Of a stretch of DNA of 42,869 nucleotides, positions 2,651-34,805 are shown piece by piece; positions within the stretch are counted from its first letter, which is position 1, and each line of letters starts with the position of its first letter. Under the pieces are notes generated by a model. That model saw nothing but the letters and a program-made list of their open reading frames with translations. It was not told the DNA's origin and searched no databases. Origin of the DNA: Acinetobacter phage vB_AbaA_LLY; sequence record OQ503491.1; one strand, written 5' to 3'. The position numbers were made by a program, and so were the translations under genes.

Positions 2651-5600
2651 ATGGCTCAGTTTCTGAACCAAGAACCGAATCCACAGGAAAAGGATTCTGC
2701 TAAGGGCGCAACACTTAAACCTGCGCCTACGCGCGTAGATTGGAACGATGCCGGAGATAACGGCTTAAATGCACTGGAACGTGCCTCCTTACTGACGCAG
2801 GCCAAGACCCCAGCTACTACAGCCGGGGAAAGCTTTGCATCGGGTATGGGCAACAGCATCATCGCCGCAGCTATCCGCAAGGCCTCTGCCCCCGCATTTG
2901 ACCGGGACCAGAACTTTAATGCCAAGCAGACGCTGAGCAGCGATACACGGGCTAAGCTGTACGCCCCAAATCAGGAAGAGATTGAGTACCTGCACGACTC
3001 GGTGTCAGTCGAGGACTATAACTACCGCATGCAGCAGATGCTTGAGCAGCGTGACCGTGACCGCTTAATGGCTGACAACACAGTAGCCGGGTTCGCGGGT
3101 ATGTTGGTAGGAGATTCCCCGTTCATCCTGGCCCCGATGTCTGCTGCTGGCATTGCTGGGCGCGCTGGCTTAGCTGTACGCACGGCTATCCGCGCCGCTG
3201 ACGTAGGCTCTGCATTCTATGCACAGGACCAACTGGGTCAGTCTGCTGCTGTAACTGCACTGGTAGCAGGCGTAGCCGGATTAGACCAGCTCTGGGATAT
3301 GTCTAGGGCGGCTAAAGCTGCCGCTAAGGCTCGTACTGGGCGTGAGCCTATGTTCGACCCAGAAGCGCCTACAACTCGTACAGCTAGGGATGCTAATGTT
3401 ACCGGAGTAGGAGAGGGGGAGGAAATTCTCACTAAGACACTGGATGAAAGCATCCAAGTATCTAGAAACAATACCGCCTCCGTGAACATGAAAGCACAGC
3501 ACGTAGTTCAGTTCTTGAAGAAGTCTGGGCACTTGACAGCAGGCCAGAAGGCTATTCTGGACACGTTGGGCGATGCTGTAAATGACATTGATTTTAAACT
3601 GGTAGCAGGCTCCGCAAACCGTAGCCGCTATACTTATGCACAACAAGATTTAGCTAAGCGAGGAGAGATATCTCTGCGCGCGCCTAAGCGAGCTAATGGC
3701 AGCACCTGGACTACAGCCGGGGACGCTCTGCGCGCTCTGGATGCGGATACAAGCAAGGTAGCCGTGCACGAACTGATTCACGCCGCCACTGCGCGCGCCG
3801 TTGACAGTAACCCCGAGATTGCTAAGCGCCTGGAGGAAGTGCGCGCTGTTATTGCAGCCGACTCCACCCTGACGCCGCGTATGCGGTATTATGCAAGTAA
3901 TGTACACGAGATGCTGGCAGGCTTAGGCGACAGCCCGGAGTGGGTTGAGCACCTGGCACGGACGCAATCCCCCACCGGTAAGAGCATGCTCCGCCAACTG
4001 GGCGAGTACATCATGAATGCCCTGGGCATCAAGGCCAAAGGTTCTGCCTTGGAGGATGTCCTGGATGCGTATGAGGACGCCGTTAAGTGGACAGCTAAGG
4101 ATTATGCAGACCAAGCTCAGAGCTTCCGTAGTGAGGCCTTCCAGGACCTGGCGGGCAGCACTACCCTCAACGAGGCTAAGGGTGCCCAAGCTATGCTGGA
4201 TGGCGCTAAGAAGAAGCTCGCTACTATGTTTGCCCTGTACGACAACATCGCTCAAGGCAATGAAGACTTGGCTAAACTACTAGTGTCGGACGCGTCCGCC
4301 GTAGGTGGCCGTCGCCCGTCTGTAGTGGACTTCAAGCGCAACCTCACTTTGGAGATGGACGCTAGCGCCAGCGTAGTGGAAGACGCTATCCTGGGCGCGT
4401 TGAAGGATAAGGGTGTAGGTTTCTCTGAGCGCTTCTTCCATAGGAGCAAGTTCCGAGCTGAGCGGGCTGCACTGGAAGACCGCCTGGGCAAGTACCTGGA
4501 TGCTGCTTATAGCGCCGACGTAAACGGGCGTCCTGTGCCTGTACCTGATGCAGAGATTGCCCCACTGGTAGACGCATACCGCAGGTCCGGGTGGGCTAGC
4601 AAGTGGCACGAGCATATGCTCAATGCCGGTCTAGTGGATGATGGTGCGTTGGTTAAATCCGACTACTATTTCCCGCGTCAGTACAGCTATGACAAGATGC
4701 GTCAAGGTATCGCACAGGGTAACACTCTGGACGACTACCGCGCCCTGTTCCGTTCCGCTCTGCGGGATGTATACCCCGGCATGGAATCCGAAACAGTACA
4801 GCGCGTTGCTAAGGAGATGGTTGACGGTATCTACAATGGCCGTGCCGGGCAATCTGGCCCTATGTGGAAGCAGCTGATTAACGGTATGGGTAACGACGAG
4901 GTCGTTATGGCTATGCGTAGCGCCGGTGTAGATGAGTCTGCAATCCAGAGCTTCCTGGCTGGTAACGTACGTGAATCCGGTAGCACATCCCCTGCGCGGA
5001 ACCTGCGCCAGCGTACTCGGTTCAATATGGACAAGGAGTATCTGGTGAATGGTAAGAGCATGCGCATGCAGGACCTGATGGATACTGACGTAGCCAAGGT
5101 TATGCACGGGTACACTAACCGTATGTCCGGCCGTGTAGGTATGGCCTACGCAGGCGTACAGGACCTGGGACAGCTCGCTAAGATGATTGATGAGTCTAAG
5201 CATGCACTGGCGGATTCCGCTAAGTGGGAGAAGACTGTCAATGACACCATCGACTTTATCCTGGGTGGGGCACCTGCTGACGCTGGGCAGCTTCCGGACT
5301 TGCTGCGTGCAGCGGGGAACATGGCGAACGCTACCATGCTTAAGAACTCCGGGCTGTATCAGCTGACTGATACTGCTCTGGCTATGAAGGAATTCGGTAT
5401 GGCTAGAGTGCTGCGTAGTATGCGTGACCAACCTTGGTTCAAGGAAGGTGCTGTAGCTATCAAGACTCCGGATATGGCTGCTCGTCTAGACATCGTGCTG
5501 CGGGGTAATATCCAGAAGGAGATGCGCTTCCGCTGGTTGAATACGTACGCCGACGATAACCTGGACCTGACCCGTCAGGCCTCTTGGTTCAACGTCACCC

Positions 5601-6349
5601 AGAACGTTGGGCAGGCTGCACGTCACGTCAACGGCATGAGTATGGTGCACCGGCTGCAGGTTAACCTGAACTCCGGTATTGTGGCGGATGAGCTTACGCA
5701 GATGTTCAAGGGTGATGCCGAGGCGTTTAAGCGTCTAGAGCGTTTCGGGCTTACCCGAGACGTTGCCGACCGGGCTATCGCCGCCAACAAGGCTAACCCG
5801 GGAGCTATGTTCCAGCCGGACCTGCAAATGCAAGTTGAGGTTGTGGGGACGCGTATGATGGACTACCTGGTACAGCAGGTTCGTACTGGCGAGACTTCGC
5901 ACTTTGCACAGTTCAACCCCATCGGCAAAGTCATTGTAGGGTACCAGAGCTTCGCACTAGCTGCCACTAACAAGATTCTGCGTAGAGAGCTGAACGATGC
6001 TGGGTGGATTGGTGTAGCCCATATTATGGCGTACCAGTTCCCATTGATGCTGCTGGCTACTATGGCCAAGCACGGCATGGACGGGAAGGACGTAGACACC
6101 CAGAAACTCATCGGCGAGTCCGTGATGGGTATGAGTGCCATTGGCGGTATATCCTTACTGCAGGATATCTTCCTGGGGAATTCTCCCCGACACTCGTTGG
6201 CGTCTATGGGTTACGTCACAGGACTGCTTGGGGCTGTGCAGAGCCTGGCTACCGGTAACATGGATATCAAGACCTTCACTAAGCAGGTACCGCTAATCCA
6301 GGAATTCGCACCTACGCGAGCTATCATCAATAACTTTGGAGACGACTAA
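2651..6349 (+). CDS. Large internal virion protein (T7 gp16 / phiKMV gp37-like ejection protein), 1232 aa
   Basis: Size and position: between the other internal virion protein and the tail fiber gene. Strong RBS AGGAG 8 nt upstream of the ATG. Confidence 0.65.
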   Translation: MAQFLNQEPNPQEKDSAKGATLKPAPTRVDWNDAGDNGLNALERASLLTQAKTPATTAGESFASGMGNSIIAAAIRKASAPAFDRDQNFNAKQTLSSDTRAKLYAPNQEEIEYLHDSVSVEDYNYRMQQMLEQRDRDRLMADNTVAGFAGMLVGDSPFILAPMSAAGIAGRAGLAVRTAIRAADVGSAFYAQDQLGQSAAVTALVAGVAGLDQLWDMSRAAKAAAKARTGREPMFDPEAPTTRTARDANVTGVGEGEEILTKTLDESIQVSRNNTASVNMKAQHVVQFLKKSGHLTAGQKAILDTLGDAVNDIDFKLVAGSANRSRYTYAQQDLAKRGEISLRAPKRANGSTWTTAGDALRALDADTSKVAVHELIHAATARAVDSNPEIAKRLEEVRAVIAADSTLTPRMRYYASNVHEMLAGLGDSPEWVEHLARTQSPTGKSMLRQLGEYIMNALGIKAKGSALEDVLDAYEDAVKWTAKDYADQAQSFRSEAFQDLAGSTTLNEAKGAQAMLDGAKKKLATMFALYDNIAQGNEDLAKLLVSDASAVGGRRPSVVDFKRNLTLEMDASASVVEDAILGALKDKGVGFSERFFHRSKFRAERAALEDRLGKYLDAAYSADVNGRPVPVPDAEIAPLVDAYRRSGWASKWHEHMLNAGLVDDGALVKSDYYFPRQYSYDKMRQGIAQGNTLDDYRALFRSALRDVYPGMESETVQRVAKEMVDGIYNGRAGQSGPMWKQLINGMGNDEVVMAMRSAGVDESAIQSFLAGNVRESGSTSPARNLRQRTRFNMDKEYLVNGKSMRMQDLMDTDVAKVMHGYTNRMSGRVGMAYAGVQDLGQLAKMIDESKHALADSAKWEKTVNDTIDFILGGAPADAGQLPDLLRAAGNMANATMLKNSGLYQLTDTALAMKEFGMARVLRSMRDQPWFKEGAVAIKTPDMAARLDIVLRGNIQKEMRFRWLNTYADDNLDLTRQASWFNVTQNVGQAARHVNGMSMVHRLQVNLNSGIVADELTQMFKGDAEAFKRLERFGLTRDVADRAIAANKANPGAMFQPDLQMQVEVVGTRMMDYLVQQVRTGETSHFAQFNPIGKVIVGYQSFALAATNKILRRELNDAGWIGVAHIMAYQFPLMLLATMAKHGMDGKDVDTQKLIGESVMGMSAIGGISLLQDIFLGNSPRHSLASMGYVTGLLGAVQSLATGNMDIKTFTKQVPLIQEFAPTRAIINNFGDD

Positions 6350-13729: not shown

Positions 13730-13769
13730 GTAGTTCTAAGAGCTCCCCGGGGTATCTCTATGGTATTCC

Positions 13770-13791
13770 TGGGGCATTGCTTGGGCATTGC
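13770..13791. repeat. Tandem duplication of the 11-mer GGGCATTGCTT
   Basis: Two perfect adjacent copies immediately downstream of the tailspike gene. Confidence 0.6.
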
Positions 13792-13902
13792 TTGGGTGCA
13801 CGTCTATACCTGGACCTGAAATTTATTAGACTCACGCGAGCCCCTCCCCTCACCCTGAACGCGCCCAATTGCCCCCATAGGGGGGTGTCCTGGGAGAATT
13901 TA

Positions 13903-13933
13903 GGGGGGGGGGGCCCTAGTGGGGCCCCACTAG
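13903..13933. repeat. G11 homopolymer followed by the 18-bp perfect palindrome CTAGTGGGGCCCCACTAG
   Basis: Read directly from the sequence: 11 consecutive G (13903-13913), then CCCTAGTGGGGCCCCACTAGTG, which contains ApaI and SpeI sites. Confidence 0.7.
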
Positions 13934-13934
13934 T

Positions 13935-14660
13935 GTGCACCAGCGGGCCTCAGAGGCTCTCTGCGCTGCGCTAGGGCTATCACCAGTGCTAACCTATGGC
14001 TATCACTGTGCGTGGCGCTGCGTGGCTCCTGTGCGCTCTGCGTGGCACTGGGGCTATCCCAGCGATATCCCTGTGCGCTCTCTGTGGGCCATAGAGGTGC
14101 GCCCTGCCTTACCTATTTTGTGCGCCTCGGTGTGGCACCTAGTGGGCCTGCCTAGTGCCTGCCTAGTGGGGCCAGTAGTGGGGCCATAGGGTGCACCTAG
14201 TGCTATCCCTAGTGCGTACTAGGCTATCCAATGGCTATCCTTAGTGCTTTACATTGTGCCGATTCTGTGCTACGCTGCGCGCTCCCCACTAGGGCGCACA
14301 TCCACACTCAACACTATCCAGCGCTATCCCAATGCTATCCCTTTGCTCTTACTTTCATTCGAAAGCTATTATGAAATGAAGTAACCGGAGTAGGAGGGGT
14401 TTAGGGACACTATATACACTACTACTCACTATGCACTCACTGGGTACTCACTAGTATGTCCCTGTGCCTACGCAGTAGGCTGACATACCTACATAGTCAC
14501 CGCATCACTCCGTGTCCTTACACTGCGTACGGACACTGCGTTCTGCTCCATGTAGTATTATATAGTGTTAGGTAGTATTGGTTCGTACTAGGCAGTATTG
14601 GCTAGCAGTGGCTACAGCTAGTGCCAGCACAGTGCTATCCCTAGATTGGTTGGGTATGGC
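13935..14660. repeat. Non-coding repeat-rich region: at least 8 copies of GCTATCC(C) and at least 5 copies of CCTAGTG/CACTAG; probable genome-terminus/early-control region
   Basis: GGCTATCAC x2, then GCTATCCCAGCG, GCTATCCCTAGTG, GGCTATCCAATG, GGCTATCCTTAGTG, CGCTATCCCAATG, GCTATCCCTTTGC, GCTATCCCTAGATTGG. Also CCTAGTG clusters (GCCTGCCTAGTG x2). No convincing long ORF; the listed 60-84 aa ORFs here are low complexity. Confidence 0.5.
14374..14397 (+). promoter_or_regulatory. Copy C of recurring motif (...ATGAAGTAACCGGAGTAGGAG); candidate phage promoter or regulatory element
   Basis: Shares ACCGGAGTAGGA with the element at 34782-34805 and GAGTAGGA with 26527-26550. Followed by GTTTAGGGACACTATATACA, which loosely resembles SP6/K11-class promoters. 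Confidence 0.25.
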
Positions 14661-14720
14661 CCTAAGTATTTGCCTTGCTTACCCTTTTTGCTCTTAGAGA
14701 TAAATATTTGCAAAAAGTAC

Positions 14721-14750
14721 TTGCTTCTTTTGGTTCAATGCAGCTATAGT
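14721..14750 (+). promoter_or_regulatory. Candidate host sigma70 promoter (TTGCTT-N18-TATAGT)
   Basis: -35 TTGCTT at 14721-14726, 18-nt spacer, -10 TATAGT at 14745-14750. Followed by the hairpin CCTCC-tcaccg-GGAGG at 14751-14766. Confidence 0.35.
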
Positions 14751-14860
14751 CCTCCTCACCGGGAGGCACTAGCGACTAGCTAGGCTAACCGGGGCCGAGC
14801 CGGGAGGCTCCGCTGGATTAAAGCTAGATAGTGTGAAGGGTTAGATACTCGATAAAAGGG

Positions 14861-14889
14861 TTGACACCGCGAAGAACATAAGCTAGATT
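14861..14889 (+). promoter_or_regulatory. Strong candidate host sigma70 early promoter (TTGACA-N17-TAGATT)
   Basis: Perfect -35 TTGACA at 14861-14866, exactly 17-nt spacer, -10 TAGATT at 14884-14889. Lies ~340 bp upstream of the first early ORF on the coding strand. Neighbouring repeats of (A/C)(G/C)CTAGAT(A/T) at 14822, 14881 and 14971 suggest tandem early promoters, like T7 A1-A3. Confidence 0.55.
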
Positions 14890-15225
14890 GAATCCCGAAG
14901 TAAGCAGTAAGCTGGTTTGAAGCTGGTTTGCGGGGAGGTGCAGTGCCTTGACGGTGCAGTGACCACCACAACCTAGATAATCAGCAGTAGTGAAGATGTA
15001 TGAAGATGCAACGTCAAGAGCTGAGACGACAAACGGCGGGTGCGCTTAGATGGTTGTGCCCTGAAAACGAAATCATCAAGCCCAGCGCGACTGGGGAGCC
15101 GGGGGAAACCACGAAGAGGCTGAATCAACGCGGTTGTACAGGTGCTGACTAGAATCAGTAACCCGCCAACCAATAACACTGACCTAAGCAACCGTGCTTA
15201 GCTGAGTGTTATACAGGAGCTAAGC

Positions 15226-15733: not shown

Positions 15734-15848
15734 AGAGTTTACTAATTACAGCCTATAGCATCCTTACGGCGGTGCAGGAGCAGTACCTGTATGCTGCTGT
15801 GACGCTCACTGTGGACGGTAAGAGCAACAACTAAATTTGAGGTGGAGA

Positions 15849-27600: not shown

Positions 27601-28452
27601 ATGACTATGAATGTGCTGGCTTCTCTGAATGCACTGGTAGACGCGGCAATTGAGTCTCAGGACGTGGACATGCGTGAGACTGCACAGGGTGGTGCGTACG
27701 AAGACGTACTGCTGCCGAAGGGCGAGTACTACGGCTATTTTACCGAGTACGTGGAAATCGGTAAGCGCCTGCCGACCAAGGGTGGCAAGCCGACCGGTAA
27801 GCCCGCAGTAGCTAACGTACGCATCGGCATTGTAGTGTTCGGCCCTAATGGCGAAGTGAAGCGTATCCGCCCGTTCCCGATGGCTATCAGTAACTTTGAG
27901 CGCGCAGGCTTCAAGAAGTTCTTCGACAAGCTCAACTACGACAATAGCATTAAGCATGCAGCACAGCGTCTGGGCCAGGCCTTCACCTTCCCGATTGATG
28001 AGCACACCAGTGCCTCGGGTAAAAAGTCTAACATCGTGGACCTGTCTGGTATCCGTCCAATTCCTAAGTTCGACCCGAACACCGGTGAGCCTATCAAGAT
28101 GCCAGCGCTGGATGCTTCCGAGATTAAGCTGTTCCTGTGGAACAACCCGACCAAGGAAACCTGGGATAGCTTATATATTGAGGGGACCAAGGACGACGGT
28201 AAGAGCAAGAACTGGATTCAGGAGGATATGTACAAGGCCGTAGACTTCCCGGGCAGTGCTCTGGATATTATGCTGAACGCTGGGTCGGTTCCTAGTCCGG
28301 CGGCTATGCAGGCACCAGCGGCACCCGCTGCCCCTGCGGCAGTTGCTGCTCCGGCAGCACCAGCAGCCCCGGTAGCTCTGGCTGCGCCAGTGGCTCCGGC
28401 GGCCCCTGTAGCTCCTGTAGCGCCAGCAGCGCCCGCTGCACCTCAAGCCTAA
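27601..28452 (+). CDS. Hypothetical protein with a C-terminal Pro/Ala-rich low-complexity tail (PAAP repeats)
   Basis: The C-terminal ~50 aa are PAAMQAPAAPAAPAAVAAPAAPAAPVALAAPVAPAAPVAPVAPAAPAAPQA, encoded by a GC-rich repetitive DNA tract at ~28300-28445. Confidence 0.5.
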   Translation: MTMNVLASLNALVDAAIESQDVDMRETAQGGAYEDVLLPKGEYYGYFTEYVEIGKRLPTKGGKPTGKPAVANVRIGIVVFGPNGEVKRIRPFPMAISNFERAGFKKFFDKLNYDNSIKHAAQRLGQAFTFPIDEHTSASGKKSNIVDLSGIRPIPKFDPNTGEPIKMPALDASEIKLFLWNNPTKETWDSLYIEGTKDDGKSKNWIQEDMYKAVDFPGSALDIMLNAGSVPSPAAMQAPAAPAAPAAVAAPAAPAAPVALAAPVAPAAPVAPVAPAAPAAPQA

Positions 28453-34103: not shown

Positions 34104-34780
34104 CGATGACTTACTTCTACAGCGCTACGGTGCGTAGCTGTAGTGATTATATCTTTGCAGGTGCCTGTGAAGAGGGGTACGAAGGAACGGATACACATAG
34201 TCTATGGAACCTATCCTGCTACCTGGCACCGCGTATGCGTACCGCTATTGAGGAGGCAAACCCAGCTGCGGCAGCAGTTATGGGGTACTTGCAGAACCTC
34301 GCTAGACGTGTACCAGCAAGCCAGCACCTGCAGTGGACTACGCCGCTAGGCGGGCTTGTAATGAACCGCTACACGCAGCGTGAAGAAGTGCGGGTACGCA
34401 TTGACTGTATGAACCTCACCATCATGCGCGTGCATAATCGGGATTTCAAGACCTGCAACAAGCGCAAGGCAGCCTCGGGGATTGCCCCGAACTTTGTGCA
34501 CAGCCTGGATAGTACGCACTTGATGATGGTTCTATGTGCCGCCGAGGGTCTGGACATTGTGCCGATTCACGACTCCCTAGCTACACATGCAGCCGATGTT
34601 GATACTATGCACCGGCACATCCGCGAGCAGTTTGTGCGTCTCTACGAAGAGCACGACCTTCTTGGGGATATCACTCGCGCGGCGGCAGCAGCTGGGGCGG
34701 ACTTGACGGATTTGGATATGCCTGAGGTAGGTACCCTGGACATCCGGCAAGTGCTAGAATCCCCTTTCTTCTTTTCATAA
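34104..34780 (+). CDS. Single-subunit phage RNA polymerase, exon 2 (C-terminal palm/thumb: GIAPNFVHSLDSTHL ... ILESPFFFS)
   Basis: Conserved T7 RNAP motif C region QESGIAPNFVHSQDGSHL and the C-terminal foot DILESDFAFA are matched. Confidence 0.8.
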
Positions 34781-34781
34781 A

Positions 34782-34805
34782 ATTTAATGTTACCGGAGTA
34801 GGAAT
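34782..34805 (+). promoter_or_regulatory. Copy B of recurring motif ATTTAATGTTACCGGAGTAGGAAT, overlapping the RBS/start of the downstream gene
   Basis: See copies A and C. Lies directly after the RNAP stop and contains GGAG 5 nt before the ATG of ORF 34804. Confidence 0.3.

Follow-up and report, generated by a model that had tools for sequence, protein, structure and literature searches.

The genome of Acinetobacter phage vB_AbaA_LLY (record OQ503491.1), taken here as one window of 42,869 nucleotides, contains a stretch of about 1.5 kb (13730-15225) between its tail-fibre gene and the start codon of a small early gene, and this locus raises the question of what such gene-free DNA, rich in short repeats, is for. 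The stretch is very likely the terminal-repeat (concatemer-junction) and early-control region of a KP34-like podophage of the genus Drulisvirus, family Autographiviridae, seen in an assembly that is circularly permuted. An earlier note, made from the letters of the sequence, had proposed a T7-like layout with a genome end followed by early promoters, and this layout is supported by homology to the mapped ends and to the annotated host promoter of relatives; the individual features that it listed are all present in the sequence. A region of this kind is already known and partly characterised in close relatives, and is ordinary in kind. The points apparently without earlier description are a terminal motif homologous to that of T7, a left-end phage promoter that varies in concert with another promoter of its genome, and a covarying leader RNA. 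The coordinates of all features are collected in Table 1.

The region matches 277 phage records, nearly all of them Klebsiella Drulisvirus (KP34-like Autographiviridae), and the closest record, RCIP0099, shares 91.9% identity over 92% of its length. Depending on the relative, the homologous stretch is found at the start, at the end or in the middle of the record, which indicates that in many assemblies a linear genome has been circularly permuted. The long open reading frames (ORFs) of the window all lie on the + strand, and in this one-strand genome the terminal repeat follows the last late gene and precedes the first early one, as in T7-type phages. The earlier observation that no credible ORF exists for about 1.5 kb was borne out, as the ORFs of 84, 65 and 50 amino acids (aa) inside 13730-15225 have no PHROG matches. 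Hidden genes were also considered among all ORFs of at least 25 aa in the region and were rejected, with no PHROG matches and with frames that are broken in relatives. A terminator scan of the region found no intrinsic terminators, and a tRNA scan of it found neither tRNA nor tmRNA.

Homology places the left virion end between 13847 and 13848, with the DNA starting CCTCACCC..., and makes the direct terminal repeat (DTR) end on its right side between 14104 and 14105, the same ~257 bp being expected again at the right virion end. The left end was mapped with at least 10 records that carry annotated repeats or start at the physical end. Records that begin at CCTCACCCT, which corresponds to 13848 of the window, are those of KpV475, SU503, Henu2_3, HF0522, fHe-Kpn01, KP34 and KpV74, joined at the same position by JKT6, AttikonH1 and H2, KpV71, SAA231, KpV48, Enterobacter phage phiKDA1 and Providencia phage PS3, and in many of these a terminal repeat is annotated at the equivalent of 13848. 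On the other side, the annotated right boundaries of KP34 (216 bp), KpV475 (243 bp) and fHe-Kpn01 (222 bp) all align to one junction, in which ...GGTGCGC(C/T)C is followed by TGCCTT..., and which corresponds to the 14104/14105 edge. The blunt ends and the 222-bp repeat of fHe-Kpn01 have been verified by PhageTerm, restriction analysis, ligation and Sanger sequencing, and the 222 bp are identical at both ends (PMC7291057 and the sequence itself); similarly, 243 bp are identical at both ends of the KpV475 record. The DTR is longer here than in these three phages because of indels around 14040-14069, and its segment is present in the window as a single copy because the assembly is circularly permuted. 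The proposal that the physical ends and the terminal repeat lie inside the region therefore holds by homology.

Immediately before the repeat, the conserved block of about 50 bp that closes the right-end flank is still recognisable in fHe-Kpn01 and NKA196, and in the SU503 record it is duplicated at the right end. The flank also contains the tandem 11-mer that had been noticed earlier, here found as 2.3 copies.

The beginning of the repeat is related to the left end of T7. Nucleotides 1-38 of T7 (TCTCACAGTGTACGGACCTAAAGTTCCCCCATAGGGGG) align with 13848-13885 of the window (CCTCACCCTGAACGCGCCCAATTGCCCCCATAGGGGG), with identity at 29 of the 38 aligned positions, and the local alignment score of 37 compares with 23 +/- 4 in shuffled sequences, 9 of 2000 of which reach 37. 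The palindrome CCCCCATAGGGGG, which occurs only once in the window (13872-13884), starts 25 nt from the end here and 26 nt from the end in T7, and this common offset provides additional evidence pointing to homology with T7. A second shared element, CTCTCTGTG, lies near the right repeat edge in both phages. Within the DTR, the best conserved 20-mer among Drulisvirus relatives is this terminal sequence (identity 0.95). A full-text literature search for the 13-mer CCCCCATAGGGGG found no paper, a search for the T7 hairpin-priming model found nothing usable, and the paper describing KP34 does not contain the searched terms on terminal or direct repeats, promoters or genome ends.

Further inside the repeat, the G-run holds its position in relatives, where its length is G7, G10, G12, G14 or G18 and where it is interrupted in fHe-Kpn01. 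Pectobacterium phage PhiM1 has a long (GT)n microsatellite (nt 37-69) at the comparable place of its 293-bp repeat, and a simple-sequence tract thus appears to be a recurrent feature of the repeat. The exact length of the run in the present genome cannot be trusted from the assembly. The earlier note described the G11 run as abutting a perfect 18-bp palindrome; both elements are there, with two C between them, and the palindrome is not conserved. It sits in the least conserved part of the DTR (0.59-0.62), is perfect in none of the relatives compared and, on these sequences, is peculiar to the present phage.

Two families of short boxes fill the right half of the repeat and continue into the DNA beyond it. 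GCTATCC occurs 18 times in the whole window, and 7 exact copies, all on the + strand, fall between 14053 and 14640, where the rest of the genome would predict 0.27 (p about 2e-8); four copies with one mismatch (GCTATCA twice, GATATCC and ACTATCC) bring the total to 11, counted from 13976 on. CCTAGTG is similarly concentrated: of the 9 copies in the window, 13915-14293 contains 7, of which 6 are on the + strand, where 0.09 would be expected (p about 7e-10), and 1 is on the - strand. The numbers given earlier were at least 8 GCTATCC(C) and at least 5 CCTAGTG. The tetranucleotide CTAG reaches 14.7 per kb in the region versus 2.2 per kb elsewhere, a 6.5-fold density. Pairs of GCTATC(C/A) boxes are often 10-11 bp apart and CCTAGTG boxes 11-13 bp, so that many direct heptamers, spaced by roughly one helical turn, lie in and next to the repeat. 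This is also the design of T7, whose record shows CCTAAAG heptamers 13 bp apart at 175-341, directly after the repeat, and more of them both within the repeat and ahead of the right repeat. No sequence homology was found between the present boxes and CCTAAAG, and the likeness is one of design only. The publication of the T7 sequence in 1983 is reported to have described the CCTAAAG arrays, which are not known to have a settled role. By analogy, the arrays of the present phage may serve in recognition or architecture at the concatemer junction.

Beyond the arrays lies a probable promoter for the phage's own single-subunit RNA polymerase, TGAAGTAACCGGAGTA, which was not among the features of the earlier note. 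According to Lu et al., the KP34 RNA polymerase uses T(A/G)ATGTTACAGGAGTA, and in vitro the copy in the left non-coding part of KP34 (nt 475-490) is as active as the main promoter (PMC6834552). TGAAGTAACCGGAGTA aligns with KP34 475-490, within a stretch (14348-14427) that is 83-99% conserved, and agrees at 13 of its 16 positions both with the KP34 consensus and with the copies that the window itself carries at 3394 and 34785. A single change separates it from TGAAGTTACCGGAGTA, which in SU503 and HF0522 is the major promoter after the polymerase gene, and at the variable position 10 (C or A) the left-end promoter and this major promoter of its genome agree in 7 of 7 genomes. It is very likely that TGAAGTAACCGGAGTA is a genuine promoter, although of uncertain strength, and the counterpart of T7 phiOL. 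Elsewhere in the window, strong KP34-type promoters (TAATGTTACCGGAGTA) are found at 3394-3409 and 34785-34800, one just after the polymerase gene and the other inside a 1232-aa ORF (2651-6349), and a match to the 'weak' promoter of KP34 lies at 34733-34752, within the end of the polymerase gene. The "MEME phage promoter" of Eriksson et al. was rejected as a candidate: it is present as a single copy outside the region (15750-15766) and, according to Lu et al., is not a promoter of the KP34 polymerase. The same site belongs to a partly diverged copy (15750-15781) of a conserved hairpin-forming motif, AGCCTATAGCATCC..., that was formerly proposed as a phage promoter.

For the host polymerase, TTGACA-17-TAGATT is the only site that passes a sigma-70 scan; shuffled sequences average 1.3 such sites, so the scan alone is weak evidence. 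The site is identical to the annotated host promoter of KP34 and KpV475, the same sequence is annotated as host promoter in KpV74, SU503 and KP-Rio differ from it by one spacer base, and it is conserved in 10 of 11 relatives, the exception being HF0522. This agreement supports the sigma70 promoter that had been proposed at 14861 (PMC4411677); the transcription start of the host promoter in relatives is a predicted one (PMC4411677). It had also been claimed that direct repeats of (A/C)(G/C)CTAGAT(A/T) coincide with -10-like hexamers. Four copies are indeed present (14639, 14822, 14881 and 14971), and as a promoter only the site at 14861-14889 is good, the other TAGAT boxes having been rejected because none has a usable -35 element at 16-18 nt. 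Across the genome the motif is not enriched (10 found versus 8.8 expected), and 4 of the 10 copies lie within 340 bp. In the conserved AT-rich block upstream, TTGCTT-18-TATAGT is below the threshold of the promoter scan, and the block is partly annotated as a promoter in KP-Rio/2015. The small hairpin that precedes the host promoter has a counterpart in KpV475 and SU503, GCAGAGTC-GGGA-GATTCAGC, with one compensatory C:G to T:A change. Downstream, the second host promoter of the relatives (TTGACAAGTT...GTAACTT) is missing here and falls in the segment lost at the 14911-14920 junction.

The last 190 nt or so before the first early gene encode a structured leader RNA, a feature absent from the earlier note. 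Positions 15036-15207 are 85% identical to sequence in Phimunavirus phages of Pectobacterium, members of another subfamily, and the first 96 nt of the leader are about 97% identical between Drulisvirus and Phimunavirus, whereas the ORF that follows shares only about 40% protein identity; a third lineage that carries the leader is represented by Klebsiella phage 6993 (about nt 700-912). A consensus fold built from 10 distinct sequences has 51 pairs in 8 helices (99% paired), and compensatory changes occur in 16 of the pairs, against 2.9 +/- 1.5 in shuffled controls and 1-3 in controls with slid partners. The long hairpin at 15173-15212, which ends 3 nt before the AGGAG of the ribosome-binding site, has 16 pairs, 5 of them with compensatory change, and two 1x1 mismatches. 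It has the shape of RNase III-type sites (irregular, about 20 bp long, with internal mismatches and just upstream of a gene) and would fit a T7 R0.3-type site of RNase III cleavage. In relatives without this leader, such as KpV475, an unrelated one takes its place, and it too closes with a long hairpin ahead of the first gene.

Wherever the leader occurs, the 65-aa ORF (phrog_16905) follows it, and among Drulisvirus genomes the two are present or absent together; the cassette is absent from KP34, KpV475, fHe-Kpn01, NKA196, KpV74 and KP-Rio. Covariance models of Rfam 15 gave only chance-level matches far below gathering scores, and the leader is without an Rfam family. It occurs only in phage contigs of about 43 kb, no copy was found in the genomes of 185,579 species of bacteria and archaea or in 5,426 genomes of E. 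coli, and mimicry of a host RNA was rejected on this result. A wider family was sought through the ORF, by a scan of viral contigs, a search of 5.8 billion proteins and a contig look-up, and the same three lineages were recovered. It is tentatively proposed, as a possibility somewhat short of even, that the leader is a phage RNA family outside Rfam that travels with the 65-aa early gene and is more than a passive processing site. If so, its roles could include translational control of the 65-aa gene, modification of the host RNA polymerase early in infection or action as a decoy for a host factor.

Several observations weigh against the reading of the region as a genome end with an early-control region. 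For the present phage itself, the ends, the exact repeat length and the length of the G-run are inferred only. TGAAGTAACCGGAGTA differs from the consensus of its own genome at 3 of 16 positions, which makes its strength uncertain; the single-sequence fold energy of the leader is unexceptional (z = -1.65), and its support is comparative, from only three lineages. No protein that binds the array boxes is known, and the box columns are barely better conserved than the rest (0.84 versus 0.75, permutation p about 0.05).

This small margin in conservation is among the points that favour an unlikely, though by no means negligible, alternative, in which the short-repeat and the 10-11-bp tandem arrays have no function and are products of slippage and duplication in unconstrained non-coding DNA beside the genome end. 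The copy number of the 10-11-bp arrays varies freely, from 2 to 8 in relatives, the boxes at 14053 and 14064 lie in an indel-prone segment, and recent duplications such as AAGCTGGTTTG x2 are visible. However, in the Drulisvirus relatives compared, 11 of 11, GCTATC occurs 5-10 times and CTAGTG 4-10 times, their distances from the left end being similar and reversed GCTATC rare, and the orientation and approximate position of the GCTATCC boxes have been kept despite an overall identity of about 80%; most individual boxes are at least 85% conserved; and T7, an independent lineage, has the same design beside its repeat.

A role for the arrays in replication, and not in packaging, appears improbable. 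On this account 14377-14620, with the phage promoter, an AT-richer segment and the phased 10-11-bp arrays, is a replication origin, and the arrays are iterons. The order of elements is suggestive, as a phage-polymerase promoter is followed by a stretch of lower GC content (0.40-0.47 versus 0.54 for the genome) with repeats phased at about one helical turn, and T7 phiOL is associated with a secondary replication origin. Yet mapped origins are lacking throughout the genus Drulisvirus, no initiator protein is known, and part of the candidate segment (14456-14572, a mosaic segment) is exchanged for unrelated sequence in RCIP0099, Henu2_3, HF0522 and KP34.

That the physical ends lie elsewhere than at 13848 and 14104, or that the genome has no fixed ends, is very improbable. 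In the NKA196 record the annotated repeat, of 167 bp, has its start 85 nt upstream of the canonical end, the terminal annotations of KP-Rio/2015 and SU503 are inconsistent, and the best-aligned terminal stretches of SU503 are only about 79% identical over about 200 nt. Against a shifted or absent end stand the experimentally verified ends of fHe-Kpn01, which fit the mapping (PMC7291057), the concordance of at least 10 records, including SAA231 with its long terminal repeat (LTR) annotation in the style of NKA196, and the positional homology to the classical T7 end, which fits 13848. The disagreements of NKA196 and SU503 are probably problems of annotation or assembly.

The weakest alternative, that 15036-15207 is conserved as the code for a small protein (a 50-aa ORF on the + strand or a 72-aa antisense ORF at 14973-15191) and not as RNA structure, draws on an antisense frame that runs without a stop through the core in the window, in SU503 and in PhiM1, and almost does so in phage 6993, and is scarcely credible because of in-frame stops in the + frame of most relatives, a 1-nt insertion in the core of one contig (L022) and substitutions that are few and, in the antisense frame, non-synonymous, to which can be added the lack of any PHROG match, the compensatory nature of the changes that do occur in the predicted stems and the + strand orientation of all genes of these phages.

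With the region read as genome end and early-control region, a course of events can be proposed. Following the T7 paradigm, replication would produce concatemers with one repeat copy per junction, and terminase would cut at both repeat boundaries, the repeat being duplicated during packaging; the likely recognition or architectural elements are the CCCCCATAGGGGG-bearing terminal sequence, the flank at 13798-13847 and the phased GCTATCC and CCTAGTG arrays, as counterpart of the T7 CCTAAAG arrays. After injection, the host RNA polymerase would start at the sigma-70 promoter (14861-14889) and make a transcript with a leader of about 330 nt, of which the last ~190 nt would fold into the conserved multi-hairpin RNA, with the final hairpin before the ribosome-binding site of the first gene as the likely place of RNase III-type processing or of translational control. 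At a later stage of infection, the phage's own polymerase could start at 14377-14392 and read rightward in the manner of phiOL.

Table 1. Features of the gene-free stretch and its neighbours (positions in the window).
Feature	Position	Strand	Remarks
Tail-fibre gene, 651 aa	11774-13729		phrog_18512
Gene-free stretch	13730-15225		Between the stop of the 651-aa tail-fibre gene and the ATG of the 65-aa early ORF
Unique right-end flank before the terminal repeat	13730-13847	+	Tandem 11-mer, TATCTCT / TATTCCT boxes, conserved ~50-bp block
Tandem 11-mer GGGCATTGCTT x2.3	13772-13796	+	In the pre-repeat flank
Conserved ~50-bp block GCACGTCTATACCTGGACCTGAAATTTATTAGACTCACGCGAG...	13798-13847	+	Near-identical in KpV475, SU503, KP1-1 and RCIP0099
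DTR, ~257 bp	13848-14104	+	By homology to mapped or annotated termini; GC 0.60-0.70
Terminal sequence homologous to T7 left end, CCTCACCCTGAACG...CCCCCATAGGGGG	13848-13886	+	By alignment to the T7 record
G11 homopolymer	13903-13913	+	~55 nt inside the repeat
Perfect 18-bp palindrome CTAGTGGGGCCCCACTAG	13916-13933	.	Two opposed CTAGTG boxes
GCTATC(C/A) and CCTAGTG box arrays	13976-14345	+	Right half of the repeat and the next 240 bp
Probable phage single-subunit RNA-polymerase promoter TGAAGTAACCGGAGTA	14377-14392	+	Expected start G 14393; positional homologue of KP34 nt 475-490
Variable-number tandem array, 11-bp unit, ACTCACTAG-type x2.8	14424-14454	+	2-5 copies in relatives
Variable-number tandem array, 10-bp unit, TAGTATTGGC / TAGCAGTGGC-type	14552-14615	+	About 2-8 copies in relatives
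Extra GCTATCC + CTAGAT unit	14634-14647
Conserved AT-rich block, GC 0.34	14668-14750	+	Weak sigma-70-like TTGCTT-18-TATAGT at 14721-14750
Small hairpin GCCGAGCC-GGGA-GGCTCCGC	14794-14813	+	Upstream of the host promoter
Sigma-70 early promoter TTGACA-17-TAGATT	14861-14889	+	Inferred start near 14896; 10/12 consensus positions
Tandem 11-mer AAGCTGGTTTG x2	14909-14930	+	At a variable junction
Structured leader RNA of the first early gene, 8 helices	15033-15225	+	By covariation
Leader hairpins in the ultraconserved 5' part (15036-15131)	15049-15077, 15081-15095, 15097-15121
Branched leader stem	15132-15171
Long irregular hairpin	15173-15212		Abuts ribosome-binding site AGGAG (15215-15219), before ATG 15226
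First early ORF, 65 aa	15226-15423	+	phrog_16905, a family without assigned function; always 3' of the leader RNA

Further repeats were observed in passing. The mosaic segment contains an inverted repeat (14463-14476 / 14522-14535), and within a coding region, at 28311-28430, there are imperfect tandem repeats of 9, 18 and 36 bp (GCTGCGCCAGCAGCACCAGC...).

Fixing the true genome start (13848) and the repeat (13848-14104) is needed for annotation, genome engineering and the documentation of therapeutic phages. The T7-like terminal sequence and the heptamer-array design are shared across subfamilies of the Autographiviridae and are candidates for the poorly defined packaging signals of T7-type phages, whilst, with the covarying leader, the regulation of early genes in phages like KP34 and PhiM1 gains a concrete candidate that can be put to the test.

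Among known systems the closest are KP34 (GQ413938), fHe-Kpn01 (MN380459) and KpV475 (KX211991), whose homologous DNA is 80-92% identical and presents the same order of repeat, arrays, phage promoter, host promoter and first genes. Their annotated repeats of 216-243 bp have the same boundaries, and their host promoter has the same sequence. The present phage differs from them in its longer repeat (~257 bp), its G11 run, a perfect 18-bp palindrome of its own, the deletion of the second host promoter and the presence of the cassette of leader and 65-aa ORF.

That cassette links the phage to PhiM1 (Phimunavirus, Corkvirinae), in which this structured RNA is specified by nt 1161-1332, upstream of gp02. 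Identity is about 97% over the 5' 96 nt, compensatory changes preserve the helices downstream, and in both phages the RNA stands directly before the homologous 65-aa ORF. PhiM1 belongs, however, to another subfamily and infects another host; gp01 precedes the RNA, the ORF has only about 40% protein identity, and the repeat has (GT)n instead of poly-G and no GCTATCC or CCTAGTG boxes.

The T7 left end consists of the repeat (1-160), the CCTAAAG arrays (175-341), phiOL (405), the promoters A1-A3 (498-750) and an RNase III site before gene 0.3 at 925 (PMC3276506 and the T7 record). Compared with it, the present phage has a longer repeat, GCTATCC and CCTAGTG in place of CCTAAAG, one strong host promoter instead of three, a phage-polymerase promoter of different sequence and no ATCTGTT pause signal after the repeat, and the remainder of the region is without sequence similarity. 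What the two share is the first ~38 nt, with CCCCCATAGGGGG at the same offset, CTCTCTGTG near the right repeat edge, directional arrays of heptamers, spaced by about one turn of the helix, within the repeat and immediately after it, and the succession of repeat, heptamer arrays, phage promoter, host promoter, hairpin and first gene (PMC3276506).

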